From Bacteroidota bacterium (lineage in GTDB: Bacteria > Bacteroidota > Bacteroidia > Chitinophagales > Chitinophagaceae): DNA of 64,000 nt. The translations under genes were made by a program, and so were the position numbers. Every line of letters starts with the position of its first letter. The stretch's first letter is position 1. This document shows positions 12,694-46,496 of the stretch, piece after piece. The stretch covers positions 4,369 to 68,368 of the forward strand of contig JABDAP010000001.1 of the NCBI GenBank assembly GCA_013289065.1. The letters are read 5' to 3'. A model generated the notes under the pieces. It ran no database searches, was not told the origin of the DNA, and worked only from the letters and a program-made list of their open reading frames with translations.

Positions 12694-13425
12694 ATGTTCA
12701 GACACCAGGGTAAGACACGAACTTTAAACCATAATCTGAAAATAGCTTCGTTATTATCTTCTGTTGCAGGTATTGTAAACGTAGCAGGTTTTTTCGCTGT
12801 TCAACGACTGACGACCAACGTAACAGGGCACTTTGCATTTTTTGCAGATGAAATTTTTAAGCTCAACTTCTGGCAGGGGTTTGTTTATTTTCTTTACATA
12901 TTTTTCTTTTTCCTGGGCTCTTTTGTTTCCAGTTTTCTTATAGAGATCATTTCACGGAAAAACGATCATTATATTTATATAGTTCCAGCTTCAATCGAAT
13001 GCATTATTCTGTTTGTGATCGGTTTTTGGGGAAAGGGTTTAATTATAGGAAGCCCTGACACTATTGCTTTCAGTTTGCTTTTTGCAATGGGTCTGCAAAA
13101 CTCTCTGGTCACAACTATTTCAAGCGCAAGTGTGAGAACAACACATTTAACAGGGCTCTTTACCGACTTAGGGATTGAATTATCGCAGTTGTTCTTTTAC
13201 AAAGAAAAAGAACAAAAACACAAATTAAAATCATCAATAAAACTGCGCTTCACAATAATAAGTTTCTTTTTTATTGGTGGTATCGTTGGTGGAATATTAT
13301 ACGCAGGAGTTGGACTTCGTTCTTTAATTTTTGCAGCTGCCATATTGGCTTCCGGTTTAATTTACGATAACATAAAATTCAAGCTCATTTTCATTTTATT
13401 AAAACGAAAACGAAAAAACAGCTGA
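12694..13425 (+). CDS. YoaK/DUF1275 family membrane protein
   Basis: AGIVNVAGF, TTNVTGH, FAMGLQN, VRTTHLTGLFTDLG. Confidence 0.92.
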   Translation: MFRHQGKTRTLNHNLKIASLLSSVAGIVNVAGFFAVQRLTTNVTGHFAFFADEIFKLNFWQGFVYFLYIFFFFLGSFVSSFLIEIISRKNDHYIYIVPASIECIILFVIGFWGKGLIIGSPDTIAFSLLFAMGLQNSLVTTISSASVRTTHLTGLFTDLGIELSQLFFYKEKEQKHKLKSSIKLRFTIISFFFIGGIVGGILYAGVGLRSLIFAAAILASGLIYDNIKFKLIFILLKRKRKNS

Positions 13426-13454
13426 CAAAAAAACATACCAACACAGGGCTGTTA

Positions 13455-13608
13455 TTAATCATTCCCACCAAGCATAAAAACATCTTCCACAGCCTTATTG
13501 AATACTTTAGCTATCTTAAGCGCAAGCACTGTTGAGGGAACATATTTATTTGCTTCCATTGCATTGATCGTTTAAGCTTACAGACACTTTCTTTGCCAGA
13601 TCTTCCTG
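13455..13608 (-). pseudogene. Truncated, frameshifted XRE-family HTH regulator
   Basis: QEDLAKKVSVS, then a 2-nt deficit, then TINAMEANKYVPSTVLALKIAKVFNKAVEDVFMLGGND*; no N-terminus or start codon. Confidence 0.8.
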
Positions 13609-13640
13609 TACTCCACATGGAACAGAAATAAAAGCTACTC

Positions 13641-13674
13641 AAAACATCAACGCAGCTTTTGCATATTTATTCGG
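13641..13674 (+). repeat. Array junction motif, copy 1
   Basis: AAAACATCAACGCAGCTTTTGCATATTTATTCGG. Confidence 0.75.
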
Positions 13675-13808
13675 CCCAGGTGTCCGGAACTGTTTAAAGT
13701 TCTGGTGAGGCCTCTTTCTGAAAAATGATAAATGGTAACCATTGTTTTATCATGCCTGTATATTTTTATAACGGGATAAGGTCTTATGCTATTAAAATAC
13801 TCCGCGAG

Positions 13809-13920
13809 CCTCTGTGCGCATTCCTTTGCGTACTCTGTGGTTAATAGCTTCAATTACAACCACAGAGTACGCAAAGAAATGCGCACAGAGAGCACAAAGA
13901 GTGTTTGAGGTTTCGCAGAG
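13809..13920. repeat. Palindromic REP/MITE-like element (CACAGAG/CGCAAAG family)
   Basis: Long near-perfect hairpin; an inverted homologue with conserved loop lies at 47935-48033. Confidence 0.8.
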
Positions 13921-13960
13921 AAATTCATTGTATACAAATCACCATCAAAAATAACCGGCC

Positions 13961-14719: not shown

Positions 14720-14734
14720 TTAGGTATTTATAGA

Positions 14735-14767
14735 AAAACATCATTCACCTTTTGTATATTTATTCAG
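14735..14767 (+). repeat. Array junction motif, copy 2
   Basis: AAAACATCATTCACCTTTTGTATATTTATTCAG. Confidence 0.8.
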
Positions 14768-14798
14768 CGACAATGAAAATTGGATAAACCCAGGTAAA

Positions 14799-15394: not shown

Positions 15395-15408
15395 GTATAT
15401 TTATTCAG
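15395..15408 (+). repeat. Array junction motif, copy 3 (3' half only)
   Basis: GTATATTTATTCAG. Confidence 0.65.
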
Positions 15409-15438
15409 CCTTTGCTTTAGCTGCTTTAAATTCATTTT

Positions 15439-16860: not shown

Positions 16861-16990
16861 CCCGGTGATCAAGCGTATCCGAACCGCTAAGGGCTATCGA
16901 GGTTAGTGGTAAGTATACAAAAACAGGAACATGAAACAAAGAACAAACAAAGGTTTGTTCAATTAGGCTGATGGAATTCTTAACGGCAGA

Positions 16991-17024
16991 AAAACATCAA
17001 CCCAGGTTTTGTATATTTATTCAG
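16991..17024 (+). repeat. Array junction motif, copy 4
   Basis: AAAACATCAACCCAGGTTTTGTATATTTATTCAG. Confidence 0.8.
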
Positions 17025-17046
17025 TCCTTTACTAAACAGATCATAC

Positions 17047-17451: not shown

Positions 17452-17506
17452 AATGATTTATTTTATTCATTCAGCCGTTGGATAAGATCTTTTATAGCGA
17501 AAAATA

Positions 17507-17600
17507 GCACGCAGATGACGCGGATTAAGCAGATCTTTACGGATCAATAATTAAAAAATAAAATCAGCGCATATCCGCTTAATCCGCGTCATCTGCGTGC
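17507..17600. repeat. Palindromic REP-like element (9-bp-period GCAGAT family)
   Basis: GCACGCAGATGACGCGGATTAAGC, 24-bp perfect inverted repeat. Confidence 0.85.
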
Positions 17601-17683
17601 CATTTACACATCAATCAGCAAAACAGCTAACCCGTTTAACGGCGCAACACATTATACTCAAACATCACTAATAATCTCTTCCG

Positions 17684-18920: not shown

Positions 18921-18953
18921 AAAACATCAAAGCATTTTTGTACATTTAGTCAG
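18921..18953 (+). repeat. Array junction motif, copy 5
   Basis: AAAACATCAAAGCATTTTTGTACATTTAGTCAG. Confidence 0.75.
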
Positions 18954-18969
18954 CACCAAAAAATAAAGT

Positions 18970-21218: not shown

Positions 21219-21378
21219 AGGCTGCAACCAATAAATCATGGCTTGGTAGAAGCTGACGCTAGAAGCGCATCAAATTAACTTTGTATATTTATTCAGTCAC
21301 GAGCTTTCGTAATCTCAAGTTAGGCATTTGATTAACTTCTTCATTATAGAAAACTATGAACGTTAGCAGTATGCTTTC
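21219..21378 (+). repeat. Decayed attC-like junction element containing motif copy 6 (21265-21296)
   Basis: Degenerate inverted ends (AAGGCTGCAACCAATAAATCATGG / CTATGAACGTTAGCAGTATGCTTT) around GCATCAAATTAACTTTGTATATTTATTCAG. Confidence 0.55.
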
Positions 21379-21462: not shown

Positions 21463-22629
21463 ATGCCAGAGCCAAGTCTACAAGAAGATGTTAATGATCC
21501 TGAAATAGAACTAGAAGAAGGAAATGAAGATATCTCTTCAGAAATACCATTTAATCCAAATGATATAAGTATCAATATAGTTCCAAGAAATATTGGTCAA
21601 CTAGTTGAAATGATGGAATATGATGAAATCTTAATACCAAAATTCCAAAGATTACCAAATTTGTGGAGCATCAAAAAGAAAAGTCGTTTTATCGAATCTT
21701 TAATGCTCAATTTACCTATTCCACTATTTTATTTTGATGAAGGTGACGATAAAAAATGGCGTGTTATTGATGGTCTCCAAAGAATAAGCACTTTGGAACA
21801 TTTTATTTTATTGGATAAGAAAAAAAAAGTGAACCTAAGTGGAAATACAGAACCCTTTAGGTTGCAAGATTTAGAATTTAGAACAGAATTTAATGGAAGG
21901 TTATGGAATGAATTACCAAAAGATATCCAAAGAAGAATCTCTACAAATCAAGTAACCATTAATTTAATAGGTAAAGGCACGCCAGAGCAAGTAAAATATA
22001 ATATTTTTAGCAGAATTAACCAAGGTGGTATAGAACTGGATGCTCAAGAAATAAGAACTGCATTATTTCAAGGATATTGGATTGATTTTTTGGAAGAATT
22101 GGTTTCAAGTTTAACGTTAGAAGGTAAGAGTTTTTTAAAGGCAACTGATAATTCAATCCCTTCAAGGCGTCAGCAAGATTTAGATTTTGTTACCAGATTT
22201 ATTACATTCTATTTATTTGACTACAAGGAATACCAGCCAGATATGGACTCCTTTCTCACAAAGGGAACAAAAGCAATACCGTCAAACTTAAAAGCTCAAA
22301 AACAAATAAAATTAGATTTCAAAAACTCTATGGATCTGGCATATGAAATCTTTGACAATGATGCTTTTAGGAAAAGGCTTAGCAATTTTGATAAGAGAAA
22401 GCCGATAAACAAGTCATTATTTGAAATAATAAGTACAATTTTCTCTAAATTAAATGAATCACAAAGAAATAAATTATGTAAAAACAAAGAATTATTTCTA
22501 GAAGAATTTAGAATACTACAAAATTCAAAAAAGTTTTTAGAATCAATTTCTACGAGTACAGCGTCCAAGGAAAAAGTACGTCAGAGACAAGAAGATTTTC
22601 AAGCATTGGTTAATAAATATTCAAAATGA
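21463..22629 (+). CDS. DUF262 (ParB-like) protein, Menshen NsnA-like
   Basis: IPKFQR..LW, SRFIESLMLNLPIP, VIDGLQRISTL, IFSRINQGG..L..QEIR; AT-rich. Confidence 0.9.
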   Translation: MPEPSLQEDVNDPEIELEEGNEDISSEIPFNPNDISINIVPRNIGQLVEMMEYDEILIPKFQRLPNLWSIKKKSRFIESLMLNLPIPLFYFDEGDDKKWRVIDGLQRISTLEHFILLDKKKKVNLSGNTEPFRLQDLEFRTEFNGRLWNELPKDIQRRISTNQVTINLIGKGTPEQVKYNIFSRINQGGIELDAQEIRTALFQGYWIDFLEELVSSLTLEGKSFLKATDNSIPSRRQQDLDFVTRFITFYLFDYKEYQPDMDSFLTKGTKAIPSNLKAQKQIKLDFKNSMDLAYEIFDNDAFRKRLSNFDKRKPINKSLFEIISTIFSKLNESQRNKLCKNKELFLEEFRILQNSKKFLESISTSTASKEKVRQRQEDFQALVNKYSK

Positions 22630-23774
22630 TTAGATATTTAAGACTTAAAAATTTTAAATCGCATAAAGACACAGTTCTGGAGATATCGAACCTGACGGTT
22701 CTTTGTGGAGCTAATGCGGTAGGCAAATCATCAGCCATTCAAGCTCTCTTACTTTTAAGAGAATCATTTCTAGCAAACTCCAATTTTGATTATTTAGATT
22801 TAAAAAGCAACCCAATAAATATAGGTACTGCTCAGGATGCAATATATCAGTTTGCAGAAAAAAACGAAGTAGGTTTTGAGATTAAAACCGACGATCTTGA
22901 ATTAGCATATTCATTTGAATCTAAAGATTCTGAACTATCCAAAACTTTAATGAATAGACCCGAAAATGTTATTCATTACTCTAACAAAGAGGTTCTCAAA
23001 AAAGAAAATCTTTTTAATAAATATTGTCAATTCATTAGTGCAGCCCGATTAGGGCCTCAACCTTACTACCCAAAAGATGATGTTGTTGTCGATATATATA
23101 ATCAAATCTCAGTTTTAGAGGGTAAAGCTGAGCATTTCATTCATTTTCTAATGCAACACAAAGATCTAATAGTCTCGAAAGACTTGGTTAATCCGAATAT
23201 AGAAGCAAATGATTTATTTTATCAAACAACTGCTTGGGAAAGGGAAATAAGTAATGGAGTCAACATTTTAGTTGAGGATTTAGGTACTCTTGGATACGAA
23301 TTGAAATATCAATTTAACACAGGATCAAAAGAAGGCAAAACTGGTTCTTATAAATCAAACAACGTGGGATTCGGCCTTTCTTATATTATGCCTATGATAG
23401 TTGCAATTTTATCTTCTCCTCCCCACATGGGTTTATTATTACTCGAGAATCCTGAAGCACACATACATCCAAACGGTCAAGGAAAAATCGCTGAGTTAAT
23501 TTGCCTAGCAGCTCAATCTGGAGTTCAAATAATTGTTGAAACACATAGCGATCACATAATTAATGGTATTTTAGTTCAAGCTAAAAGATTTGAAGAAACT
23601 GGAAAAGGCATTTCAAAAGACAATATCGCTATGTATCACTTTGCTAGAAACATAAAACAACATTCTAGCGAAGCCATAAGAATTAATATCGAAGATGGAG
23701 GGAGAATAAGATATACACCTAATGGCTTTTTTGATCAATTTTCAATAGACAGAAAATTTTTAATGGGTTTCTAA
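22626..23774 (+). CDS. ABC/AAA ATPase with DUF3696-like C-terminus, Menshen NsnB-like
   Basis: LKNFKS, Walker A GANAVGKS, signature NVGFGLS, Walker B LLENPEAHIHP, VETHSDH, terminal PNGFFDQ; ATGA overlap with upstream gene. Confidence 0.9.
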   Translation: MIRYLRLKNFKSHKDTVLEISNLTVLCGANAVGKSSAIQALLLLRESFLANSNFDYLDLKSNPINIGTAQDAIYQFAEKNEVGFEIKTDDLELAYSFESKDSELSKTLMNRPENVIHYSNKEVLKKENLFNKYCQFISAARLGPQPYYPKDDVVVDIYNQISVLEGKAEHFIHFLMQHKDLIVSKDLVNPNIEANDLFYQTTAWEREISNGVNILVEDLGTLGYELKYQFNTGSKEGKTGSYKSNNVGFGLSYIMPMIVAILSSPPHMGLLLLENPEAHIHPNGQGKIAELICLAAQSGVQIIVETHSDHIINGILVQAKRFEETGKGISKDNIAMYHFARNIKQHSSEAIRINIEDGGRIRYTPNGFFDQFSIDRKFLMGF

Positions 23775-24550
23775 TGTTACAAAGTCTCGATATATATATC
23801 GATTTTCAATGGGATGACTATGCAAATAATCCGCTGAACTATTTTTACAGCTTAAATAGTGTAATAACTTTAGCATACCAACATCATCTGAATGTTTATT
23901 ATTCTCCAACGCAATTAGATGATTTTAAAAATAATTGCAATGACTGGGAAGAAAATTTTATAGTTTCAAAATCAAATTTTATAGCATCCATTTTAGAAGA
24001 TGCATTACCGGTAAACCCATCATCCTATTTTTTTACTGTAGTATTTAGTGAACTTAATACTACAATAATTCCAGATGTAAATCCAATAATTAACGCATTT
24101 AAAAAAAATACAAACAATTCTTTAATCTCAATTTTTGAAAACCAAGGTCAGAAAACACTATTAAAGGTCAACTCTGCGAATGATTTTGAAAAAGTAATTT
24201 ATACTCTCGTAACTACCCCACAAGAGATACTTAATTGGATATGGCAAAACGGAGAGGTTCGCAATTTTAATCTTTCACCAAAACACGGTGAAAATGGCAT
24301 AGGCCATTGGACAGGAGAATCTTCATTGTTATGCAATAGAGAACGGGCACAAGAACTATTAAATATATCTATACCTGATTTTAGAGAAAAGAATAGACTT
24401 TTCGTGTTTGATGAGCGTTTTAATACATTTCTTGAATTTTTTTTTGAAGGCGATAATCCTCAGAAACAATGGCATGGATTTCATCTTGAAGAAAAAGATT
24501 GGCAACAAAGAGTTCCAAAAAGTATTAGAACTTTTTATGGGAAGAACTAA
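23774..24550 (+). CDS. Putative defence effector (NsnC position), possible C-terminal nuclease
   Basis: TAATG overlap; C-terminal SPKHGENG...AQELL...FD...EF...WHGFH pattern. Confidence 0.65.
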   Translation: MLQSLDIYIDFQWDDYANNPLNYFYSLNSVITLAYQHHLNVYYSPTQLDDFKNNCNDWEENFIVSKSNFIASILEDALPVNPSSYFFTVVFSELNTTIIPDVNPIINAFKKNTNNSLISIFENQGQKTLLKVNSANDFEKVIYTLVTTPQEILNWIWQNGEVRNFNLSPKHGENGIGHWTGESSLLCNRERAQELLNISIPDFREKNRLFVFDERFNTFLEFFFEGDNPQKQWHGFHLEEKDWQQRVPKSIRTFYGKN

Positions 24551-25156: not shown

Positions 25157-25290
25157 CCAGATAGCAGCAGTTTTGGTTTTACACAGCTGATACTTCGCAG
25201 CAAAATATCATCTCAACTTTTGTACATTTATTGAAGCATTGACCTTTGTCAATGCTTCAGTTGTTTAAAGCATTTATCATAGCTGCAATT
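25157..25290 (+). repeat. Decayed junction element with motif copy 7 (25202-25235) and a 12-bp hairpin
   Basis: AAAATATCATCTCAACTTTTGTACATTTATTGAAG; TGAAGCATTGAC-CTTT-GTCAATGCTTCA; right end CATAGCTGCAAT. Confidence 0.55.
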
Positions 25291-30340: not shown

Positions 30341-30465
30341 AATCATTTTCCATTTATTTAAATTGATACAATAACAAATAAATTATCTTTCATAGAAGCA
30401 TCTCGGTTTTGTAATTTTATTCGCACAGTTTATTCCTGCCGGGTATTTTTTAAGAACAACGCAAA

Positions 30466-30825: not shown

Positions 30826-30841
30826 AATAATTCGCGGCATA

Positions 30842-30914: not shown

Positions 30915-31268
30915 ATGGATGAATTCGTATTACTCATGAGACACATGGATGGCTCGAAGATCGCATCGCCTGAACAAATGCAGGCATGGATGAAACAGAC
31001 CATGGACTGGATCGGCGGCATTGCTGCGCAAAACAAATTTGTAACCGGCACAGGCCTGCCTTTTGATGATGCAAGGGTGGTAAACTCAGACAAAGTTGTA
31101 ACCAACGGCCCTTTTGGAGAGATAAAAGAAACGATCGGCGGTTACATAATTGTAAAAGCCGATTCCGTTGAAGAAGCGGTTGAATTTGCAAAAGGTTGCC
31201 CCGTTTTGCAGGGCGAAGGCAATACCGTAGAAGTAAGAAAAGTTGCCAAAAAAGATGGCGTTCATTAA
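30915..31268 (+). CDS. YciI/DGPF family protein
   Basis: VTNGPFGEIKETIGGY, AKGCP, VEVR. Confidence 0.92.
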   Translation: MDEFVLLMRHMDGSKIASPEQMQAWMKQTMDWIGGIAAQNKFVTGTGLPFDDARVVNSDKVVTNGPFGEIKETIGGYIIVKADSVEEAVEFAKGCPVLQGEGNTVEVRKVAKKDGVH

Positions 31269-31307
31269 AGATGGCAAAGCTCCGTATATTTCTACGGAGC
31301 TTTTTAT

Positions 31308-32549
31308 ATGGAACAACCCGAACTGATACCGCATCTATTCAGAACAGAGTTCAGAAAAATAGCCGCTGTTCTCTGTAAAACTTTTGGTATCGGCCATATC
31401 GAAACCGCTGAAGATATTGCCGGTGATACTTTTTTGGCAGCCATTGAAACATGGAGCTACAAAGGTTTGCCTGAAAATCCAACTGCCTGGCTTTATCTGG
31501 TGGCAAAAAATAAAGCAAGAAATTATCTGACACGCAACTCCATTTTTGCAGAAAAGATTTTTCCGCAATTAAATCAACGGGCGCCGGAGTTTGAAGAGAC
31601 CGATATCGACCTTTCTGAACAAAACATCACAGACAGCCAGCTGCAAATGCTGTTTGCCATTTGTCATCCATCTATTTCAACAGAGTCGCAGGTAGGCCTC
31701 GCATTGAGAATTCTCTGCGGGTTTGGGATCGATGAGATCGCAAATGCTTTTTTATCCAATAAAGAAACGATCGCAAAAAGATTATCGAGGGCAAAAGAAA
31801 AACTGCGGAATGAAAAAGTAAACATTGAATTTCCCCGTGAAACCGAGATCAGTAAAAGGCTGGAAGCAGTTATGGTTACTTTGTATTTGCTGTTCAGTGA
31901 AGGATATTACTCAGAGAGCCGCGATACGATACTGCGCGAGGATCTTTGTTTTGAAGCCATGCGTTTAACCCATCTGCTGATAGATAATGAACGAACCGAT
32001 CAGCCAATTGTGAATGCATTGCTTTCTTTAATGTGTTTTCATTCTTCCCGTTTCGCAGCGCGGAAAAATGAAAACGGAGAAATTATTTTATACGATGACC
32101 AGGACGAAACGCTTTGGGATCAGGAGCTGATCGCAAAAGGTGCATACTATTTAAGGCGTGCCTCGCAGGGAAATACTGTTTCGAAATATCATATTGAAGC
32201 CGGCATTGCTTACTGGCATACGGTCAAAACCGACACAAAAGAAAAATGGGAAAATATATTACAGCTGCATAATCAATTATTACAGATAGAATATTCACCT
32301 ATCGCGGCGCTTAACAGAACATTTGCATTGTCAAAAGCAAATGGCAAACCTGCGGCCATAGCGGAAGCGGAGAAATTGAATTTAGCCAACAACCATTTTT
32401 ATTTTACTTTACTTGGCGAATTATATAATGGCATCGATAATGACAAAGCAAAAGCAAATCTTGCAAAAGCATTACGCCTCGCAAAAACAAATACAGACAG
32501 GCAGACCATTCAGCAAAAGATCGATAGCTTATCTTCAAAAAAGGATTGA
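31308..32549 (+). CDS. ECF sigma factor with C-terminal TPR-like extension (ECF42-type)
   Basis: AEDI..DTF, PENPTAWL, QMLFAICHP, LALRILCGF..EIA.AF, YLLFSEGY, QDETLWD; adjacent to a DGPF gene. Confidence 0.9.
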   Translation: MEQPELIPHLFRTEFRKIAAVLCKTFGIGHIETAEDIAGDTFLAAIETWSYKGLPENPTAWLYLVAKNKARNYLTRNSIFAEKIFPQLNQRAPEFEETDIDLSEQNITDSQLQMLFAICHPSISTESQVGLALRILCGFGIDEIANAFLSNKETIAKRLSRAKEKLRNEKVNIEFPRETEISKRLEAVMVTLYLLFSEGYYSESRDTILREDLCFEAMRLTHLLIDNERTDQPIVNALLSLMCFHSSRFAARKNENGEIILYDDQDETLWDQELIAKGAYYLRRASQGNTVSKYHIEAGIAYWHTVKTDTKEKWENILQLHNQLLQIEYSPIAALNRTFALSKANGKPAAIAEAEKLNLANNHFYFTLLGELYNGIDNDKAKANLAKALRLAKTNTDRQTIQQKIDSLSSKKD

Positions 32550-35670: not shown

Positions 35671-35732
35671 TAAGCCGCAGATTCGCAGATTACATTGATT
35701 TTACTGGAACCAATCTGCGAATCTGCGGCTTA
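35671..35732. repeat. Palindromic REP-like element (GCAGATTC family)
   Basis: TAAGCCGCAGATTCGCAGATT, 21-bp perfect inverted repeat, arms identical to 49687-49730. Confidence 0.88.
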
Positions 35733-36209: not shown

Positions 36210-38357
36210 TCAGTGTACAACAGCATTGCGCGCGGTTTCAACATCTTTGGCAACATCGCTGCGTAATTTTTCCCAATGAAAACGGAGCGCTTCGTTTTGT
36301 TCTTTTGTATTTCCTTTCTGTTCTGTAAAATGAACAAGCGGCATATCATTATAAATGGGCCGTGTTATGGCGATCACTTTATCCCAGAATGCCAGCGCCT
36401 TTTCCAAATGCTGTATGGCATCCTGTTTATTTTGTGCGCCGCCTTTGGTACGGTATAACTGCAGGCTTACCGCACCTTTTAATTTTTCTGAAAAATATAA
36501 TCCAAGATCTGCCCATGTTTGTATATCTGCCACTTCATACATCAGTGCATTGTTGTTAACAGCATGGATATCTTTTACCAATTCCAAAGCTTTCAGGCAA
36601 TCTTTTTCAAGCATGGCTGATAAAACAGGCGGCGTAACCTTACCGGCCGCAAATGATCCGCCTGAAGAAATGGTTTTGATATAATCTGCAACCGAAACAT
36701 AATCCGGATCAGTTGGCGGCTGATCGATCTGCCTGTCAACCGTAATATAATCAACGGTCTTATCATGCAGCGACATAAAGCCTTCGCTGTATAATGAAAA
36801 GTCCCAGGTAAAATCAAATGAAGAAGCCAGGCGTAAAGGAGTTTTACCAGCAAGTGAATTTGCTTCCAGTAAATTTTCTCCCTGTTTTCCGTAACGCCTT
36901 GTAAACTCTGCACGGAACAATGCATCCGGCGTTGCGGGATCGTATAATAATCTTCCCCATAATTTATAGAAGAGCCATTGCCGTTCAAATGCGTATTTCC
37001 AGTTAACAGTAATCCCTGTTTTTGTAAAATAATCTTTAGCGGGAATATATGTTTCGGATCCTAAACAATAACCGCCTACATAAGATTGATTATTTGTTGC
37101 TATATGCGCGCGGATAAAATCAGGTACGCCCCAACGCAAACAAAAAAAATCTTCATTACGCGCCGTCCAGGTGATCTTGTAGTTCTGTGGTTCGGGTTTA
37201 AAATACGTATCAAATAATTTACCGCCATGCACTTTAACCAATGTTGGCGTTGAATGTGCATGCGACCAGTTATATTTCAGGTCGGCCCAGATGGGTTTTT
37301 CCAGAAAATCCATTTTGCCTTCTTCATCAATTGCTTTGCGCGTTAATATTTCCGTCTCAATACTGGTTGGCCCAAGCGATCCGAGATTGCTTGAAAATGG
37401 TATGCGGTGGATCAGTTTTGATTTACGGTTTGCGAGCCGCATCCCTTCAATGATCGTTTCTTTCATCCAGTCCTCACGCTGTTGCGGATCCATGCCACCC
37501 ATGCCTTCGCCAAGTGTTAACCCAAAACCGGTAAGCTCGGGGTATTCCTGCAACACCTGTGTTACACTTTCGCGCGTGTATCTTTTAATGATGGAAGAAG
37601 TGTCGCCATTCACAAAAAAATTATGTTCCAGGTTATCCATCGCTACATGGTGCGCTTTGGCAAACGACGGGCTCACAAATATGTTGAATGGAACGAGATA
37701 AGTATCGATGCTGCGTTCTTTTGCCATTGCCATGATCGAATGAAATAATTTTTTCCATTCGTTCAGTTCTTTATCCGTAAAAGGAGAAGCTTCAGGATAA
37801 TTTTTTGCTTTGATCAGATACACATAAGGATGCAGGTTCCATAATGTAAGCGCATTAAAACGGTTCTCCGCCATCATATCAAGAAACGCTTCCCAGAAAT
37901 GAACATCCTTGCAGGTTTCCGAATGAAGGTCAAGTGCATAACTGTGGCGGTAAGTGTCCCAGGGCAGGTCAAATTTTATCGCACGGAAAGGAAGATGCGG
38001 TTGTTCATTTTCGGTTTTTATTTTCTGTAAACCGGTTCCGTTCCTGATCGATTCTGCAAGTGATAGGCTGCCATAGATCACTCCCCTCTCATCACCGCCG
38101 GTAATGGTAATCGTTTTGCCGGTTGGCAAAATGGAATACGCTTCATTTACCGCTTTGCCAGGATCAACAGTAAGAACAATCGTGTAATCAGTTTGTATTT
38201 CTTTTATTGAATATCCTTTCAGCAACAACGCTTTCCTGATCATCCGTGCTGCATATGATTGCTGTGGTGATGTGCCTGCGTATTGAATGTGCACGCTTTG
38301 CGCAAAAACAGCCCCGCAGAAAACAATGCAACAGGAAAGAAAAAATATTTTTTTCAT
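36210..38357 (-). CDS. Secreted glycoside-hydrolase-like protein (GH20/GH67-type N-domain plus probable TIM barrel)
   Basis: Signal peptide, EAYSI...ITITGGDERGVIYG, W..FLDMMAENRFNALTLW. Confidence 0.7.
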   Translation of the reverse strand: MKKIFFLSCCIVFCGAVFAQSVHIQYAGTSPQQSYAARMIRKALLLKGYSIKEIQTDYTIVLTVDPGKAVNEAYSILPTGKTITITGGDERGVIYGSLSLAESIRNGTGLQKIKTENEQPHLPFRAIKFDLPWDTYRHSYALDLHSETCKDVHFWEAFLDMMAENRFNALTLWNLHPYVYLIKAKNYPEASPFTDKELNEWKKLFHSIMAMAKERSIDTYLVPFNIFVSPSFAKAHHVAMDNLEHNFFVNGDTSSIIKRYTRESVTQVLQEYPELTGFGLTLGEGMGGMDPQQREDWMKETIIEGMRLANRKSKLIHRIPFSSNLGSLGPTSIETEILTRKAIDEEGKMDFLEKPIWADLKYNWSHAHSTPTLVKVHGGKLFDTYFKPEPQNYKITWTARNEDFFCLRWGVPDFIRAHIATNNQSYVGGYCLGSETYIPAKDYFTKTGITVNWKYAFERQWLFYKLWGRLLYDPATPDALFRAEFTRRYGKQGENLLEANSLAGKTPLRLASSFDFTWDFSLYSEGFMSLHDKTVDYITVDRQIDQPPTDPDYVSVADYIKTISSGGSFAAGKVTPPVLSAMLEKDCLKALELVKDIHAVNNNALMYEVADIQTWADLGLYFSEKLKGAVSLQLYRTKGGAQNKQDAIQHLEKALAFWDKVIAITRPIYNDMPLVHFTEQKGNTKEQNEALRFHWEKLRSDVAKDVETARNAVVH

Positions 38358-39453: not shown

Positions 39454-39885
39454 ATGAGTGACGGGCCTTTTATTATTGAGCGTATATTTAACGCACCGGT
39501 ATCAACCGTATGGAAAGCCATAACAGATAATGCGGAAATGAAAAAATGGTATTTCAACATTGCGGATTTTAAACCGGAAATCGGTTTTGAATTCAATTTT
39601 GCAGCCGGCGACAGCAAAAAAACCTATGTACATCTTTGCAAAGTGACCGGAGCGATCCCCGAAAAAAAATTAAGTTATACCTGGCGCTACGAAGGCTACG
39701 AAGGAAATTCAGAAGTAATATTTGAATTATTTCCTGAGGGCGATAAAACAAAGCTGGTACTTACGCATGCCGGGCTGGAAACTTTTCCATCGGATCCTTC
39801 TTTTGCAAAAGAAAATTTCGCGAAAGGCTGGGCACATATTATTGGCGCTTCATTGAAAAATTTTGTTGAAGGTGTGAATGCGTAA
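39454..39885 (+). CDS. SRPBCC/AHSA1 domain protein
   Basis: FNAPVSTVWKAIT..EMKKWYF, LSYTWRY, LTHAGLETF, GW. Confidence 0.92.
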   Translation: MSDGPFIIERIFNAPVSTVWKAITDNAEMKKWYFNIADFKPEIGFEFNFAAGDSKKTYVHLCKVTGAIPEKKLSYTWRYEGYEGNSEVIFELFPEGDKTKLVLTHAGLETFPSDPSFAKENFAKGWAHIIGASLKNFVEGVNA

Positions 39886-40041
39886 ACGTGATCGTTGTTT
39901 TGTTATACGGTTTTCTTATATTTAATTGACCATAAGTCCATGGACCATGGTCTATGAACAATCAATGGAAACGGAGTAACTAAATTGACACAGAAAATTG
40001 ATTTATTGAAAGAAGAAACAATCAATGCAGCCATTAGAAAT

Positions 40042-40251
40042 ATGGTAGAGATTTTTAAAACCAATGTCCAACAACCCGACGAATCAAAAATGATCGTGGA
40101 GAAATTGCTGGTACATTATCCTGCAAACAAGATCAATTTCGACCTCTCCGATTGCGACAGGATCCTGCGCGTGGAAGGAGAGGCTATATGCCCTGAAACA
40201 ATTGTAGCGCTTGTAACGGCAAAAGGCTTCCATTGCGAAGTTTTGTTCTGA
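40042..40251 (+). CDS. Small ferredoxin/HMA-like fold hypothetical protein
   Basis: MVEIFKTNV...NFDLSDCDRILRV...GFHCEVL. Confidence 0.75.
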   Translation: MVEIFKTNVQQPDESKMIVEKLLVHYPANKINFDLSDCDRILRVEGEAICPETIVALVTAKGFHCEVLF

Positions 40252-40262
40252 TGTAGCTTAAT

Positions 40263-40355
40263 CACTGCGCCCCGCGCCTTGCGTGCATTTTTTTCATGCC
40301 AAGGCGCAGAGGCGCAGTGTTGATTTGTTTTGAATTTTCAAACTGAAACACTACT
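40263..40355. mobile_element. MITE/REP-like element, inverted homologue of 5658-5794
   Basis: Hairpin plus GAATTTTCAAACTGAAACACTACT flank. Confidence 0.65.
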
Positions 40356-40461
40356 AAAAATCCCTCTATTGGTGATTTTGTTTTCAGGTAATTTATTGCG
40401 CAGGCTTTAGTAACTTTAACCCTACTCAATTATTATGATACCTGTATTCAAACTCATTCCT

Positions 40462-42117
40462 ATGCACTTACTCAGAAAATTATTGTTTGCCGCACCGGTT
40501 GTATGTATTGTTTCATGCAGCCAGAATAATTCAACCATCGACCGGGAAGACGGGCTCGCTGCTTTCAGCGCAGACAGTTTAAAAGCGCATGTAGCCATGC
40601 TTGCTTCCGATTCTTTTATGGGCCGTAAACCTTTTACAGCAGGAGAAACAAAGACCATCGATTATCTGCAAAAACAATTTGCCGCCGCAGGGCTTGAGCC
40701 CGGAAACGGCAACAGTTATTTGCAGGAAGTTCCGATGGTAAATATTTTAACCACTGCTGCACCTTCTATGCAGGTAACATCGCCTAAGGGAAATTTTACT
40801 TTGAAAGCGTTTGATGATTATATTATCTGGACAGATAAAACCGATCCTGACATTACTTTGAAAGATGCCGATCTTGTATTTGCAGGATATGGCGTGGTTG
40901 CGCCGGAATATAACTGGAACGACTATGCAGGCATTGACGTAAAAGGAAAAGTGGTGATGGTAATGGTGAATGACCCGGGCTTCTGGGCAGGCGATTCAAC
41001 TTTGTTCAAAGGAAAAACAATGACCTACTATGGCCGCTGGACCTATAAGTTTGAGGAAGCCGCCAGACAGGGTGCAAAAGGATGTTTGATCATACATAAT
41101 ACTGCAGCAGCAAGTTACCCGTTTGCAATACCGCAGAATAATTTCAATACATCAAGGCTTCAATTGGATAACAGGGGAAAGGATATTAAAAACTGTGATG
41201 TGGTTGGATGGCTACCCGAGCCTATCGCGAAAAAATTATTGCTTGCTGCCGATCTCGATACCAATCTTATCGCGAAAGCAAATATTCGCGGCGCGAAAGC
41301 GGTGGATATGAATTTGAAATTATCTACTACCATGAAAGTACAGGCCACTTATAATAAATCATATAATGTTATCGGAAAGATCACCGGCACGAAACACCCG
41401 GATGAAGTGATCGTCTATACTTCGCACTGGGATCATTTAGGGATCGGCAAACCGGATGCAAGAGGCGATTCCATTTATAATGGCGCATACGATAATGCCA
41501 GTGGTACAGCGGGTTTGCTTGAACTTGCCCGCGCATTCAAAAGCATGAAAACAAAACCGGAGAGGACGATCATTATCTTATCTGTAACGGCTGAAGAACA
41601 GGGGCTGCAGGGCTCGGCATATTATGCACAAAACCCCATTTATCCAGCCGCAAAAACTTTGGCGAATATGAATGTGGATGAACTCAACCGTTTTGATAAA
41701 ACAAAAGATATTGTAGTGGTTGGCGAGGGGCAATCGGAACTTGAAGACATTCTTAAAGAAGAAGCGGAAAAAATGGGCCGGTATATTTCTTATGAAACAC
41801 ATCCGGAAGCCGGCCATTATTACCGTTCCGATCATTTCAATTTTGCAAAAGCGGGTATTCCTGCATTATACATTAATAATGGTATTGATGTGGAAGGAAA
41901 AGGAAAAGCATATGGACAGAAAATAGATGATGATTACAATACAAATGATTACCATCGCCCGTCAGATTCGTTTGATGCAAAAACATGGAGCATGGCCGGC
42001 GGTATTGATGACCTGAAACTATTGTTCCAGGTTGGAAAACGTTTGGCAGCTGCAGGTAAATTTCCTGAATGGAAAGCGGGCTCGGAATTTAAAGCGGCAA
42101 GAGACGCTCAGAAATAA
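40462..42117 (+). CDS. M28 family metallopeptidase lipoprotein with PA domain
   Basis: Lipobox IVSC, SHWDHLG, NGAYDNASG, AEEQGL, YRSDHF, YHRPSD. Confidence 0.95.
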   Translation: MHLLRKLLFAAPVVCIVSCSQNNSTIDREDGLAAFSADSLKAHVAMLASDSFMGRKPFTAGETKTIDYLQKQFAAAGLEPGNGNSYLQEVPMVNILTTAAPSMQVTSPKGNFTLKAFDDYIIWTDKTDPDITLKDADLVFAGYGVVAPEYNWNDYAGIDVKGKVVMVMVNDPGFWAGDSTLFKGKTMTYYGRWTYKFEEAARQGAKGCLIIHNTAAASYPFAIPQNNFNTSRLQLDNRGKDIKNCDVVGWLPEPIAKKLLLAADLDTNLIAKANIRGAKAVDMNLKLSTTMKVQATYNKSYNVIGKITGTKHPDEVIVYTSHWDHLGIGKPDARGDSIYNGAYDNASGTAGLLELARAFKSMKTKPERTIIILSVTAEEQGLQGSAYYAQNPIYPAAKTLANMNVDELNRFDKTKDIVVVGEGQSELEDILKEEAEKMGRYISYETHPEAGHYYRSDHFNFAKAGIPALYINNGIDVEGKGKAYGQKIDDDYNTNDYHRPSDSFDAKTWSMAGGIDDLKLLFQVGKRLAAAGKFPEWKAGSEFKAARDAQK

Positions 42118-42151
42118 GACATCGTTTTTAGCAGTGGGTGAACGTTTGTTT

Positions 42152-42236
42152 ATTTTGGAATTTTGAGATTGGGAAATTTTGGAATTGAAAACCAAAAAAC
42201 CAATTCCAAAATTTCCCAATCTCAAAATTCCAAAAT
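42152..42236. repeat. 36-bp perfect inverted repeat built of ~8-bp units
   Basis: ATTTTGGAATTTTGAGATTGGGAAATTTTGGAATTG, 13-nt loop, exact reverse complement. Confidence 0.9.
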
Positions 42237-42328
42237 TGACACCTGCTGTTGAGCTACAACGTTTTCGCAAAAAAGCGTCAATTAAAAATAACAGAAGGTT
42301 AATTTGTAACAACGAAAAAATAATTGCC

Positions 42329-43465
42329 ATGAAAGAATTCTTTTCCAATCGTAGAAAGTTTATCAGGAACACCGCTACCACTGCAACAGGTATGATGTTG
42401 CTGTCATCTTTACCTAAAAGAGCCATTGCCGGTTTTACTCCAGAACCGAAGATCCGTTTCTCCGTCATCAACATTAACCACGGCCATATCAGCGGCATGG
42501 TGAATGCGGTAGCGAGAGGCGGCGGCCAGCTCGTTTCTGTGTATGCCAAAGAACCTGACCTGCTGGCTGCATTTACCAAACAATTCCCGCAGGTAAAAGT
42601 AGCTGCAAGCGAAAAAGAAATTTTAGAAGATAGTACGATACAGCTCATCATGAGTTCCGGTATTCCGGATGAGCGCGCACCGCTTGGTATCCGCGTGATG
42701 CAGCATGGAAAAGATTATCTCGTTGATAAACCAGGTATCATCACACTCGAACAACTTGCAGAAGTCCGTAAAGTGCAGAAAGAAACCAAACGCATTTATT
42801 CCATCATGTACAGTGAACGTTTTGAAAACAAAGCCACTGTTAAAGCAGGTGAACTGGTAAAAGCAGGCGCCATCGGCAAAGTGATACAGACCGTGATACT
42901 TGCACCACACAGGATCTCGCCAAAAACGAGGCCTGACTGGTTCTGGGATAAAAAAAGATTTGGCGGCATTATCTGCGACATCGGCTCACACCAGTTCGAT
43001 CAGTTTTTATATTTCACAGGATCCACACATGCAGATGTAATTGCATCGCAGATCGGAAATGTGAATCATCCCGACTATCCAAAGTTTGAAGATTTCGGCG
43101 ATGTGATGCTGCGCGGAAATAACGGCAGCGGTTATATCCGTATCGACTGGTTCACACCCGATGGATTGAATACCTGGGGCGATGGGCGCTTAACCATACT
43201 GGGAACCGATGGTTATATTGAAGTACGCAAGAACACTGATATCGCAACCGATCATAAAGGCGGCAATCATTTGTACATCGTTAATCAGAAAGAAACAAAA
43301 TATATCGACTGTAACCAGGAGCCGTTACCATTTGGCGCAGCATTGGTGGATGATATATTGAACCGCACTGAAACGGCCATGCCGCAGGAACATTGTTTCC
43401 TCGCAACAGAGCTCGCATTAAAAGCGCAGAAGAATGCACAATGGATCACCAATATTCCTAAATAA
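42329..43465 (+). CDS. Gfo/Idh/MocA oxidoreductase with Tat signal
   Basis: NRRKFIR Tat motif, HGHI, VDKPG, GGIICDIGSHQ. Confidence 0.92.
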   Translation: MKEFFSNRRKFIRNTATTATGMMLLSSLPKRAIAGFTPEPKIRFSVININHGHISGMVNAVARGGGQLVSVYAKEPDLLAAFTKQFPQVKVAASEKEILEDSTIQLIMSSGIPDERAPLGIRVMQHGKDYLVDKPGIITLEQLAEVRKVQKETKRIYSIMYSERFENKATVKAGELVKAGAIGKVIQTVILAPHRISPKTRPDWFWDKKRFGGIICDIGSHQFDQFLYFTGSTHADVIASQIGNVNHPDYPKFEDFGDVMLRGNNGSGYIRIDWFTPDGLNTWGDGRLTILGTDGYIEVRKNTDIATDHKGGNHLYIVNQKETKYIDCNQEPLPFGAALVDDILNRTETAMPQEHCFLATELALKAQKNAQWITNIPK

Positions 43466-43468
43466 ATA

Positions 43469-44569
43469 ATGGCTGTTACGATTGTTCTCACCATATTGAT
43501 CCTGTTAGTGATTGCCGTATATCTTTTTATGCGGCAATCTTCATTTGGCAAACTGCCATCGGGAGTGCGGCTGGAAAAAATAAAAAGATCGCCGCATTAC
43601 AAAGAAAAAAGTTTTCAGAACTTAAGCCTCACACCCAATCTCGCAGAAGGCGTGAGCTATACTAAAGTGATGCGGGAATTTTTCTTCAATAAGAACAAAC
43701 GCCAAAAACCTGCACAAACATTGCCCGGCAAAAAAACGGATCTCCTTTCCCTTCCTGCCGATAAAAATATTCTTGTATGGTTTGGCCACTCCTCTTATTT
43801 TATACAGGTGGATGGAAAAAAAATATTGGTTGACCCTGTTTTCAGCGGCAACGCATCGCCGATAAGATCTACTACCAAAAGCTTTCCCGGTTCTGACAGG
43901 TATACGCCGGAAGATATGCCGGAGATCGATTATCTGTTTATTTCGCATGATCACTGGGATCATTTGGATTATCCAACCATGATCGCATTGCGGCCAAAAA
44001 TTAAAAAAATAATTACCGGTTTAGGAACGGCCGCACATCTGGAACGTTGGCAATACAATACCGACATCATCATTGAAAAAGACTGGAACGAAAAAGCCGA
44101 ACTGGATCAAGGGTTTACTGTTCATATATTACCGGCAAGACACTTTTCAGGCCGTGGTTTTACACGAAATAAAACATTGTGGGTATCATTTGCTTTGATC
44201 ACGCCAACGATGAAACTATATCTGGGCGGCGATTCCGGCTATGATACGCATTTTGCAGAGATCGGAAAAACATTCGGCCCGTTTAACCTGGCGATACTTG
44301 AATGCGGCCAGTACAATCCTTACTGGAAATACATTCACATGATGCCTGAAGAAGTGGTGCAGGCCGCGATCGACCTGAAGGCAAAAAAATTACTGCCCGT
44401 GCATTGGGCAAAATTTTCACTCTCATTGCATTCATGGGATGAACCGATCTTAAGAGTAACAAAAGAAAGCGAATTAAAACACATGCCCATCATTCACCCG
44501 ATGATCGGGGAAGAAGTAGATCTGAATGCTGATACCGTTTTTACAAACTGGTGGGAAACGATCGAATAA
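43469..44569 (+). CDS. MBL-fold metallo-hydrolase (RomA/NAPE-PLD-like)
   Basis: WFGHSS, ISHDHWDHLD, PARHFSGR, GGDSGY, HMMPEE, PVHW. Confidence 0.93.
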   Translation: MAVTIVLTILILLVIAVYLFMRQSSFGKLPSGVRLEKIKRSPHYKEKSFQNLSLTPNLAEGVSYTKVMREFFFNKNKRQKPAQTLPGKKTDLLSLPADKNILVWFGHSSYFIQVDGKKILVDPVFSGNASPIRSTTKSFPGSDRYTPEDMPEIDYLFISHDHWDHLDYPTMIALRPKIKKIITGLGTAAHLERWQYNTDIIIEKDWNEKAELDQGFTVHILPARHFSGRGFTRNKTLWVSFALITPTMKLYLGGDSGYDTHFAEIGKTFGPFNLAILECGQYNPYWKYIHMMPEEVVQAAIDLKAKKLLPVHWAKFSLSLHSWDEPILRVTKESELKHMPIIHPMIGEEVDLNADTVFTNWWETIE

Positions 44570-44573
44570 AAAT

Positions 44574-44642
44574 CTCAGCCACTCTCTGTGTTCTCTGTGT
44601 GTATTCCTTTGTGCACAAAGTTTTACACAGAGGCCCGCAAAG
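44574..44642. repeat. Degenerate REP-like element (CTCTGTG family)
   Basis: ctctctgtgttctctgtgtgtattcctttgtg...cacagaggcccgcaaag, similar to the 13809 element. Confidence 0.6.
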
Positions 44643-44718
44643 TATTTCAATAGCACAACACATATACCGTCAACAATCCGGCATACTTTATTTATATTTA
44701 GTTACCTAAAAACTGTTT

Positions 44719-45735
44719 ATGCAAAAAATACTTTTTGTAGTTGGCCTATGTTTCATCATTATGCAACCAGCCAGATCGCAACAGGCTGTAACTGCTGCCA
44801 ACCAGTTTATCCATACACTTACTGACGACCAGAAAACAGAAACGCTTTTTCCATTCGATATCGACGAGCGTTATAATTTTCATTTCATACCAAGGGAAAG
44901 AAAAGGCATCACATTCAATGAAATGAATGAAGCGCAGAAAAAAACAGCGATCGCTTTAATGAAAACCTGTTTGAGTGAACAGGCTTTTCAAAAAACACAG
45001 GATATCATGTCGCTCGATATCGTTTTAAAAGAACTGGAAAAAAGAAAACCCGACGATCATTTCCGCGATCCGGGCAATTATCATATCAGTATTTTTGGCA
45101 TCCCGTCTGCTACTACCATCTGGGGCTGGCGTTTTGAAGGGCATCATATCTCATTTAATTTTTCCATCGATAAACAAAAACTGGTATCGGGCACACCCGG
45201 CTTCCTGGGAAGCAACCCCGCCATCGTATTGGACGGCCCGCAAAAAGGAAAACAGGTATTGAAAGATGAAACCGATATGGGTTTTGCTTTATTGCATTCA
45301 CTCGATAAAAGACAAATACAGAAAGCAATCTATGATACGGGTGCACCAAAAGATATTATCACTTTCAACAACCGCAGTGCCGTGATGGAAAATAAAGACG
45401 GCATCCGTTACAATGAATTAACGCCTGCACAACAACAACTGATGCTGCAGCTGATCAATTTATATATTCACCGCTTCACCAAACTATTTGCTGACAACAT
45501 GCTGAAAGAGATACAACAGGCAGGCATGGAAAACCTGCGTTTCGCCTGGCTCGGCCATACCGAACCCGGTGTGGGCAATCCGCATTATTACCGTTTGCAG
45601 GGCCCAACATTTATTATTGAATATGATAACACGCAGAACAATGCCAATCATGTACATTCAGTGATACGCGACCTCAAACATGATTTTGGCGGGGATGAAT
45701 TACTCGAGCATTATAAAACATCGCATACAAATTAA
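44719..45735 (+). CDS. DUF3500 secreted protein
   Basis: WGWRFEGHH, PGFLGSNP, HYYRLQGP.FIIEYDN, NHVHSVIRD...DFG. Confidence 0.92.
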   Translation: MQKILFVVGLCFIIMQPARSQQAVTAANQFIHTLTDDQKTETLFPFDIDERYNFHFIPRERKGITFNEMNEAQKKTAIALMKTCLSEQAFQKTQDIMSLDIVLKELEKRKPDDHFRDPGNYHISIFGIPSATTIWGWRFEGHHISFNFSIDKQKLVSGTPGFLGSNPAIVLDGPQKGKQVLKDETDMGFALLHSLDKRQIQKAIYDTGAPKDIITFNNRSAVMENKDGIRYNELTPAQQQLMLQLINLYIHRFTKLFADNMLKEIQQAGMENLRFAWLGHTEPGVGNPHYYRLQGPTFIIEYDNTQNNANHVHSVIRDLKHDFGGDELLEHYKTSHTN

Positions 45736-45862
45736 GCTTTGAGCCATCAGCCATCAGCTTTCAGGAAATATTTTATGTCGTATTTGATTGCTGATACTGA
45801 TGCAGACAGTTCATTGCTTATAGCTCATGGCTGACGGCTGTAAGCTGACAGCTGATAGTTGA
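45736..45862. repeat. AGCYWTC heptamer repeats in inverted arrangement
   Basis: gctttgagccatcagccatcagctttc...gcttatagctcatggctgacggctgtaagctgacagctgatag. Confidence 0.75.
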
Positions 45863-45902
45863 TAAAAAATGCTTATTTTGGTTTAGTTTAAAAACCCGTA
45901 TC

Positions 45903-46496
45903 ATGTTTCGAAGAAGTTTCCTGGTTTGTTTTGCATTAGGAGTGCTTTTATCCCGATCAAATGGCCAGGCGCTTACTATGGATAGTTATGCCAACCAGCT
46001 TCTCTTTAATATTTTCAAAGATAGTCCTGATACGGCTATCCGGCCCTTTTTAAGATCATACACACCTTCCCTGCTCGATAAAAAAACAGGAGATGCGGTT
46101 ATTTCCGCAGGTGAAAAAAAAGAGAGAAATAATTTTGAGATCCATTCTTTTGTTTTTACGAGGCATCCTTATTTTACACCGATTTTTGCAAGCGGGAAAA
46201 TGGAATTCTTTTGCGAACACTTCAGCGATGCCAAAGGTGTGCAGGTATACGATGTAAGGCTATGGTTTGATTTTGATACACAGGAAGACGCCGAACTGGC
46301 TTTTTCAAAACTGGTTGAAATGTTTATGCCTATCGCCACCAAACAACGTTTCAGCAGCCCTAATGGTTCACGAAAAGCGGAATTCTCCGACACAAAAAGC
46401 CCGAAAGGTTTTAATAAGATACAATTCCGCCTGACTGCGGATAATCTCGACCATCACAAGTTTAAAATACTTTTCGAAACATTGAACGATCTCTGA
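45903..46496 (+). CDS. Secreted hypothetical protein
   Basis: 197 aa, signal peptide ending SNGQ. Confidence 0.75.
   Translation: MFRRSFLVCFALGVLLSRSNGQALTMDSYANQLLFNIFKDSPDTAIRPFLRSYTPSLLDKKTGDAVISAGEKKERNNFEIHSFVFTRHPYFTPIFASGKMEFFCEHFSDAKGVQVYDVRLWFDFDTQEDAELAFSKLVEMFMPIATKQRFSSPNGSRKAEFSDTKSPKGFNKIQFRLTADNLDHHKFKILFETLNDL

Follow-up and report, generated by a model that had tools for sequence, protein, structure and literature searches.

This report concerns the interval between the core genes ispH and cmk in a metagenome-assembled genome (MAG) of the family Chitinophagaceae, and a 37-nt motif that recurs within it. The window, i.e. the whole 64-kb stretch of DNA that was analysed, comprises positions 4369-68368 of contig C1 in an assembly (G000) of 2.4 Mb in 129 contigs that is 53% complete. 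Genes were called as mechanical open reading frames (ORFs), and families were assigned by a Pfam scan of the window proteins. Between ispH and cmk lie about 44 plus-strand ORFs, most of them small, and 44 of the 45 intact genes of the interval are co-oriented on this strand. The borders, the copies of the motif (hereafter also called the core) and the part of the interval shared with relatives are listed below, where "box" denotes a -7-type promoter element within the core and "repeat" the longer sequence in which the core is embedded in congeners.

11404..12639, plus strand: ispH (LytB; Pfam LYTB, 5e-68), the left core-gene border of the hot spot
13641..13677, plus strand: motif copy 1, core only; 42.2 bits; box CATATTTA
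14734..14770, plus strand: motif copy 2, core only; 42 bits; TATATTTA box 44 nt before the ATG at 14799
15395..15410, plus strand: half copy (right half of the core), 5' of a short signal-peptide-like ORF remnant; 13.8 bits, model positions 24-39
16969..17027, plus strand: motif copy 3 (core from 16991) with about 22 nt of the left repeat interior; 44.2 bits; box 35 nt before the ATG at 17047
18921..18957, plus strand: motif copy 4, core only; 36.7 bits; box 29 nt before the ATG of an operon
21263..21299, plus strand: motif copy 5, core only; 36.4 bits; the GC content falls at this point
25202..25238, plus strand: motif copy 6, core only; 37.7 bits; box 91 nt before a 52-aa ORF
30392..30425, plus strand: degenerate core-like sequence with a shortened spacer, 5' of a SnoaL gene; weak (4.4 bits, read by eye)
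39454..46496, plus strand: older shared part, with AHSA1, an 88-aa ORF, M28 peptidase, GFO/IDH/MocA, MBL-fold, DUF3500 and a 197-aa ORF (tblastn)
46499..47176, minus strand: cmk (Pfam Cytidylate_kin, 4e-63), the right core-gene border

Several families are found twice, namely VOC (at 18970 and 20823, one protein of PhnB type and one glyoxalase), AHSA1/SRPBCC (20229 and 39454), the dihydrofolate reductase (DHFR)-like RibD_C (25490 and 35020) and DUF1801 (17047 and 38958). Pfam further assigned DUF3108, AhpC/TSA, YdjC, YHYH, MORN, SCO1, SnoaL, YCII, an ECF sigma factor with DUF6596, OsmC, DUF1569, DUF2809, M28 peptidase, GFO/IDH/MocA oxidoreductase, MBL-fold and DUF3500, while about a dozen ORFs have no family match. 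The GC content is 0.30-0.34 at 21-25 kb as compared to about 0.40-0.43 in the surroundings. An earlier reading, made from the sequence alone, had regarded the interval as an integron-like array of genes captured one unit at a time at a fixed locus. Its description of the gene content proved accurate: it had counted about 42 mostly short genes, all on the plus strand except one intact gene and one remnant, had named the four recurring families, and had pointed to abrupt composition shifts at 21.4-24.6 kb and at the AT-rich YoaK gene. However, many neighbouring genes overlap or are at most 40 nt apart, so that much of the interval consists of operons and not of one-gene units, and the units between motif copies contain 1-4 genes.

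The spacing of ispH and cmk was compared in 40 sampled congeners, and the genome-specific block was searched for in 140. In 16 of the 40, the two genes are convergent neighbours only tens of bases apart. Five others have gaps of about 4 kb (G050, G013), 8 kb (G051), 10 kb (G057) and 11 kb (G022), as compared to 34 kb in the present genome, and in three further sampled congeners the two genes lie far apart. Outside the two core genes the neighbourhood is conserved, with penicillin amidase preceding ispH, and fasciclin and GDPD following cmk. Orthologues of ispH show 65-87% identity across the genus, and the closest relative found is G057, in which ispH and cmk are each 87% identical. The genes at 39454-46496 occur in G057 in the same order with 61-84% identity (tblastn) and are partly common to G022, G051 and G047. 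The block at 12.6-32.6 kb is present as a unit in none of the 140 congeners; its single genes have DNA matches of about 65-75% identity at scattered congener loci. As the cmk-proximal part is shared with relatives and the 27 kb on the ispH side are unique, the region at 39.4-46.5 kb is old and that at 12.66-39.4 kb is genome-specific. The gap between ispH and cmk is a long-lived hot spot of gene accretion between two core genes. An age gradient with the youngest part next to ispH, as the sequence-only reading had anticipated, is supported. A convergent junction that ranges from 0 to 34 kb within one genus provides a natural series for the filling of a hot spot.

The motif (consensus AAAACATCAAyTCAACTTTTGTATATTTATTCAGC) occurs in the window in six plus-strand copies that score 36-44 bits, whereas the next-best match to the motif model reaches 13.8 bits; the recurrence of a co-oriented junction element over 13.6-25.3 kb, first noticed in the sequence-only reading, is thereby established. 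The whole 2.4-Mb assembly holds 10 strong copies. With six of them in the window and only four elsewhere (three co-oriented within 1.4 kb on contig C86, one on C4), clustering is far beyond chance. All 10 copies are located upstream of co-oriented genes, with 17-45 nt between motif end and ATG on C86 and C4. The flanks of the window copies are unrelated on both sides and variable positions are confined to fixed columns, which indicates selection on the sequence and not a recent duplication. The information content amounts to some 46 bits across 43 positions. No dyad symmetry is seen in the motif, the six window junctions have no common single-stranded DNA fold (z +0.4 to -2.8), and neither the window nor four related loci contain a known RNA family at gathering score. 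A possible similarity to the LexA box of E. coli or to dif/Xer sites was set aside, as dyad symmetry is lacking and the gene content is not SOS-like.

An exact-pattern scan of 185,579 species genomes yielded one real match, a perfect copy in the record of G057 (also listed as G254; 100% complete), besides chance singletons. G057 carries clusters of co-oriented motif copies on three contigs, with the same consensus in a species at about 87% protein identity. A scan with the motif model found one or two weaker copies in 8 more of the 140 congeners, and weak single matches (at most 23 bits) in 5 of 150 other genera of the family. The inspected copies in relatives are all upstream of co-oriented genes. 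In the G057 array, the intergenic regions proved to be mutually homologous over about 200-230 nt, and a profile built from these repeats detected arrays with 13 and 8 repeats at two loci in G313, 14 repeats in G318, 8, 4 and 3 on three contigs of G276, and 8 in G057 itself. In these arrays genes and repeats alternate, each gap being occupied by a repeat. In at least five genomes of the same genus, the motif forms the conserved middle of this repeat of about 197 nt. A dispersed repeat of about 100 nt in G057 (L040:4816-4917), which overlaps a called 97-aa ORF, belongs to a separate family with at least 15 copies in G311 and several in G318 and G297 (79-87% identity).

Such a context bears on one possible explanation of the motif, that it is an ordinary intergenic repeat, similar to repetitive extragenic palindromes (REP) or miniature inverted-repeat transposable elements (MITE), or a chance recurrence without a role. 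Other intergenic palindromic repeats do exist in the interval. The motif itself, however, is not palindromic, is restricted to one strand and has no conserved flanks; its consensus is maintained in another species, and in congeners it lies inside a structured recombination site. The scores, the cross-species consensus and the site context effectively refute this explanation.

The congener repeats have the characteristics of cassette recombination sites. In an alignment of 39 copies, the left end reads ..GCnnnYAAC and the right end CGTTRnnnGC.., with a median R''-R' span of 197 nt. RNAalifold pairs the left arm (columns 110-124) with the right arm (columns 280-294), and 9 of the 11 pairs display compensatory double changes; a single site folded as DNA forms a stem of about 30 bp, the core remaining in the unpaired centre. 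When adjacent repeats are compared, the 13 nt from the GTT of one repeat mirror, in reverse complement, the 13 nt up to the AAC of the next, with 10-12 of 13 positions matching as opposed to 7.3 within one repeat and 6.8 for random pairs. It is thus each gene that is flanked by inverted repeats, and not each repeat, a footprint left by circular cassettes that recombine at G|TT. The genes are small and almost all unrelated: across 80 ORFs in congener arrays the median length is about 150 aa, and relatedness is confined to 7 of 3160 pairs. One two-gene cassette (72-78 aa and 111 aa) occurs in both G276 (L066:3429-3972) and G318 (L069:11942-12503) with 87-92% protein identity, and since the neighbouring cassettes differ, it constitutes direct evidence of cassette exchange.

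The link between these sites and the window rests on several alignments. The model built from the G000 copies matches position 15317 of G057 contig C17, inside a full-length repeat (L039:7204-7443), and a BLAST comparison of the window junctions with the 39-copy alignment returns matches only at columns 201-244. Motif copy 3 extends further: nhmmer aligns it with positions 92-151 of the full-repeat profile (E 1.5e-4), and the 22 nt of repeat interior to the left of its core reach a local alignment score of 67, the maximum in 200 shuffles of the flank being 61. At the level of sequence, these comparisons show that the 37-nt motif of the window is homologous to the centre of the attC-like cassette site of its congeners.

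In G313, G318, G276 and a 5.2-Mb contig from ENA, the arrays are immediately preceded, in the same orientation, by a gene for a tyrosine recombinase of about 385 aa. This enzyme contains the domains Phage_int_SAM_4 and Phage_integrase, and PF00589 is matched in one unbroken stretch. Against TIGR02249 it scores 188.8 bits (cut-off 265), the alignment being split in two and leaving out the IntI insertion. Among proteins of solved structure, XerC-like proteins and XerA are closest to it, followed by IntI4. By its sequence, the enzyme is therefore classed as Xer-like and not as IntI, judged by the insertion that defines the latter. Homologues number in the thousands in Chitinophagaceae MAGs, where they are named only site-specific integrase or XerD; none was found in the complete genome of G057. 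On the ENA contig (L072:7069-21158), genes for HTH_17, a primase, MobC and a relaxase precede the recombinase, which is followed by six full repeats, and insertion sequence (IS) elements lie within the array; this element may be a mobilisable form of the integron-like element.

The congener arrays resemble sedentary chromosomal integrons (cassette arrays with IntI, attI and attC, such as the Vibrio superintegron) and the clusters of attC sites lacking an integrase (CALINs), as defined for IntegronFinder (PMC9024848), in that co-oriented, small and unrelated genes alternate with structured sites (..AAC / GTT..), cassette ends are complementary at G|TT, and the array is headed by a tyrosine recombinase, some genomes having arrays without one. 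They differ in the enzyme, which lacks the IntI insertion, remains below the TIGR02249 cut-off and is encoded in the same direction as the cassettes. They also differ in the sites, which at about 197 nt exceed the usual attC length of about 57-141 nt and have a sequence-conserved centre with a promoter-like box. The window has a fixed locus, co-orientation, unrelated small genes, a defence system and gene remnants in common with classical integrons, but neither arms, footprint nor recombinase, and it has several genes per unit.

These absences were established with a series of searches. Matches to the full-repeat profile did not exceed about 44 nt anywhere in the assembly, and the left-arm and right-arm profiles had no matches at the expected positions in the window. 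For inverted repeats at the unit ends of the window, the best 11-mer had 9 matches, the same as in shuffled sequences. The pattern RYYYAAC...GTTRRRY is not enriched (2 occurrences in the 34 kb of the interval, 2 in the remaining 30 kb of the window). A classical attC site in the window was hence rejected on all counts (pattern count, single-stranded DNA folds, arm profiles and unit-end inverted repeats). Neither a PF00589 protein nor a tblastn match to the congener array recombinase was detected in the 53%-complete assembly. The window contains none of the hallmarks of a classical integron (IntI integrase, attC sites, G|TT cassette-end footprint), nor the two or more recognisable attC sites away from an integrase that define a CALIN, as only the 37-nt centre remains. 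Of the proposed integron-like capture, the fixed hot spot and the relation of the motif to an attC-like centre thus stand, while arms, footprint, fold and recombinase do not, and the co-oriented units hold 1-4 genes. The sequence-only reading had also assumed a recombinase acting in trans or lost; none was found in the assembly, and the enzyme of the relatives is not an IntI. Measured against the Chitinophagaceae-type cassette system, the window has the centre six times, once with 22 additional nt, and no arms, a state that fits a relic and a possible descent from that system.

Intermediate forms exist in G057. One of its hot spots (L039/L040, on C17) contains eight full repeats, then partial repeats and then core-only copies. 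This array has no recombinase, and its full, partial and core-only junctions look like a decay series. It is bordered by genes conserved in G297, G318, G313 and G276, and the corresponding position holds 5.7, 18 and 29 kb of different content in three genomes (G057:C17, G297:C11 and G318:C1:2651212-2669312), thus forming a second hot spot. Because of this series, and because one window copy (at 16991) is extended, the direction of change would be decay and not an independent origin of the core.

Gain or loss of a unit can be followed between G057 and G311, which have 87-91% DNA identity. A 1004-nt unit consisting of a core copy and an ankyrin gene is present in only one of them (L041:11598-12600 versus L049), directly 5' of an orthologous resident core; its breakpoints fall beyond the motif, at a distance of 15-20 nt, and neither of the two copies is a chimera. 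A second indel nearby, of 420 nt, is unrelated to any motif. The expectation that cassette units are gained and lost with breakpoints at the junction elements is thus borne out by one motif-plus-gene difference, but only loosely with respect to its ends, and not at all by the second indel.

This difference is one of the points in favour of an array that is still active without its own integrase (CALIN-like), the recombinase being supplied in trans from the unassembled half of the genome and the 37-nt motif serving as a minimal site. The incompleteness of the genome would permit this, and the Menshen island described below starts at a motif copy. However, a minimal site would hardly be reconciled with the lack of dyad symmetry, of a common junction fold, of an enriched RYYYAAC...GTTRRRY pattern and of unit-flanking inverted repeats above shuffles, with indel breakpoints outside the motif and flanking copies that are not chimeric, or with core clusters in G057, which is complete and devoid of the array recombinase; no PF00589 protein was found in the 53%-complete G000 assembly either. 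We consider a working array in the window very unlikely.

Features within the core suggest why it may have been retained. The sigma-A promoter of Bacteroidota, as worked out in Bacteroides and Flavobacterium, consists of a -33 TTTG and a -7 TAnnTTTG element. In the present genome, TAnnTTTG is enriched about 4-7 fold at -40 to -10 of start codons, and TAnnTTTA is equally so. The core contains TAyATTTA (TATATTTA or TACATTTA) in five window copies and CATATTTA in the sixth, and in three copies the box starts 29-44 nt before the ATG (44, 35 and 29), a distance at which TAnnTTT[G/A] is the enriched upstream box in this genome. A conserved AAAACATCAA box is positioned 12 nt upstream of the -7 box, and TTTTG abuts the latter. 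We interpret the core as a putative promoter pointing at the downstream gene, possibly assisted by a factor that binds the left box AAAACATCAA. Such a function would explain why the only sequence-conserved part of the site outlives the arms. The core differs from an ordinary promoter in its extent, about 35 nt being conserved, which is far more. It is also not a general promoter of this genome, as its 18-nt right half occurs only 8 times at up to 2 mismatches.

We favour, on balance, an explanation by which the 27 kb next to ispH represent a decayed integron-like cassette region, a relic rather than an array that still functions. The gap between ispH and cmk would be a long-lived insertion hot spot, the youngest 27 kb of which derive from a cassette region of the Chitinophagaceae type. 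In the working system, each site of about 197 nt would carry the promoter for the next cassette; upon loss of the recombinase, the arms would decay and only the promoter core would be kept by selection, so that the core would now be the promoter of the units of 1-4 genes found in the window. The present analysis adds the identification of the 37-mer as the centre of a site, the -7 box within this centre, and the relic state proposed for the locus.

Several observations weigh against this interpretation. Five of the six copies have no repeat sequence beyond the core, and for these, descent from a full site is indistinguishable from a spread of the core. The MAG is 53% complete, and assembly typically loses repeat arrays together with their recombinase. 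The motif has no -33 TTTG at the expected spacing, 19-21 nt upstream of the box, where Bacteroidota sigma-A promoters have it, and carries AAAACATCAA closer to the box instead; three window copies are 163-283 nt away from the next long ORF, and a promoter function is suggested by one box and its position. The 1004-nt unit shows neither microhomology nor GTT/AAC ends at its breakpoints. Finally, an orthologue of PhoD (87% aa identity) has the motif upstream in G057 and not in G000, so that a core can come and go without cassette arms.

Some of these points would also fit a host regulatory element, i.e. a specialised promoter with an upstream activator or operator box that serves a lineage-specific regulon of accessory stress, detoxification and hydrolase genes, and that was taken up by the congener repeats; the window would then never have been a cassette array and would have grown by ordinary insertions at a permissive convergent junction. 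The invariable position upstream of co-oriented genes with a -7 box, core-only copies at scattered loci in about 9 of 140 congeners, the variable presence at PhoD, the multi-gene operons of the window and the five bare copies are all in agreement with this. But an information content of about 46 bits is, in our judgement, well above the expectation for the site of a single factor, and the copies form co-oriented clusters in accretion regions where a regulon would have them spread over its loci. Also, copy 16991 retains 22 nt of the repeat interior, and G057 has full, partial and core-only forms in one array. No candidate regulator tracks the motif: the local ECF42 sigma factor has a different conserved promoter and occurs in G022, which is without strong copies, and it was rejected as the factor behind the motif for these reasons. 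We therefore regard a host element as a rather unlikely explanation, and operons that use a promoter which cassette sites also use as less likely than a relic array.

The remaining features of the interval are listed in order of position.

12661..13425, plus strand: DUF1275 (YoaK-like) gene, the first genome-specific gene (Pfam DUF1275, 7e-37)
about 13467-13640, minus strand: frameshifted remnant of a YozG-like XRE-type helix-turn-helix gene (read by eye from the sequence, no profile)
directly after motif copy 4, plus strand: operon of PhnB-VOC, DUF1398, AHSA1 and glyoxalase (Pfam)
21463..24550, plus strand: complete Menshen anti-phage system NsnA, NsnB, NsnC, AT-rich with a GC content of 0.30-0.34 (PADLOC 5e-119, 6e-94, 2e-52)
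from 25314, plus strand: 52-aa membrane-type ORF after motif copy 6, followed by RibD_C at 25490
30915..32549, plus strand: YCII and ECF42-type sigma factor (Sigma70_r2 and DUF6596; Pfam)
36210-38357, minus strand: GH20b-like gene, the only intact minus-strand gene of the interval (Pfam)

The DUF1275 gene is AT-rich (GC 0.30-0.41), and its congener homologues are found at other loci. The XRE-type remnant lacks its N-terminal (5') part, the truncation coinciding exactly with the start of motif copy 1, and may represent an old insertion scar. Between this copy and the next ATG, 283 nt downstream, lies a hairpin with 33-nt arms (13810-13890). The Menshen block starts directly after motif copy 5 and is followed by a gene at 24746; its right edge, at about 24.65 kb in a fine-scale GC profile, is without a motif. 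A 9-nt direct repeat (AGCTTTCGT) is present at both edges of the island (21302 and 24589) and is compatible with chance.

An association of ECF42 sigma factors with YCII proteins has been described (PMC8999054). In a set of 13 YCII-sigma loci from 10 genomes (L046 and L053-L063, and the window at 30826-32549), the pattern TGTCC-N16-18-CG(A/T)TTG is found about 60-90 nt upstream of YCII in most, and is a candidate autoregulated promoter of the YCII-sigma operon; in the window this element reads TGTCC...CATTTG. Genes for YHYH, a MORN variant and SCO1/SenC are tightly linked at 28148-30262, with an AhpC/TSA thioredoxin-like gene 1 kb upstream, and this trio may be a copper-handling module. Five long, near-perfect palindromes (13810-13890, 17502-17605, 30281-30340, 35671-35732 and 42147-42241) have arms of 21-41 nt that are 94-100% complementary and consist of short reiterated words such as CACAGA or GCAGAT, and their sequences are mutually different. 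They are probably terminators or REP-like elements, and were rejected as attC candidates, as four of the five are found just past stop codons, as terminators would be, and they have neither a common sequence nor AAC/GTT ends.

Bacteroidota are regarded as almost devoid of integrons. For Bacteroidetes, the output of IntegronFinder 2.0 was limited to In0 elements and a single complete integron, that of Salinibacter (PMC9024848), and a review names Bacteroidota among the phyla with integrons (PMC8618304). The window connects an ordinary-looking block of small genes for stress response and detoxification with an integron-like capture system that is found in its own genus. This congener system would likely escape the standard detector, given an enzyme without the IntI insertion and sites of about 200 nt, a length near the default attC size limit of IntegronFinder.

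Classical cassettes rely on a single promoter, Pc, and only those close to it are read. With an outward promoter built into each site, every cassette would be transcribed wherever it is placed in the array, and if the conserved centre is such a promoter, the system avoids the expression limit of classical integrons. After loss of the recombinase, the arms would erode while the cores persist, and the store of cassettes would become a permanent block of expressed accessory operons; we advance this scheme tentatively, with the window as a late and G057 as an intermediate stage of domestication, and would put it at somewhat less than an even chance. Should the promoter function of the centre hold true, a route from mobile cassettes to fixed chromosomal genes would be visible in this genus.

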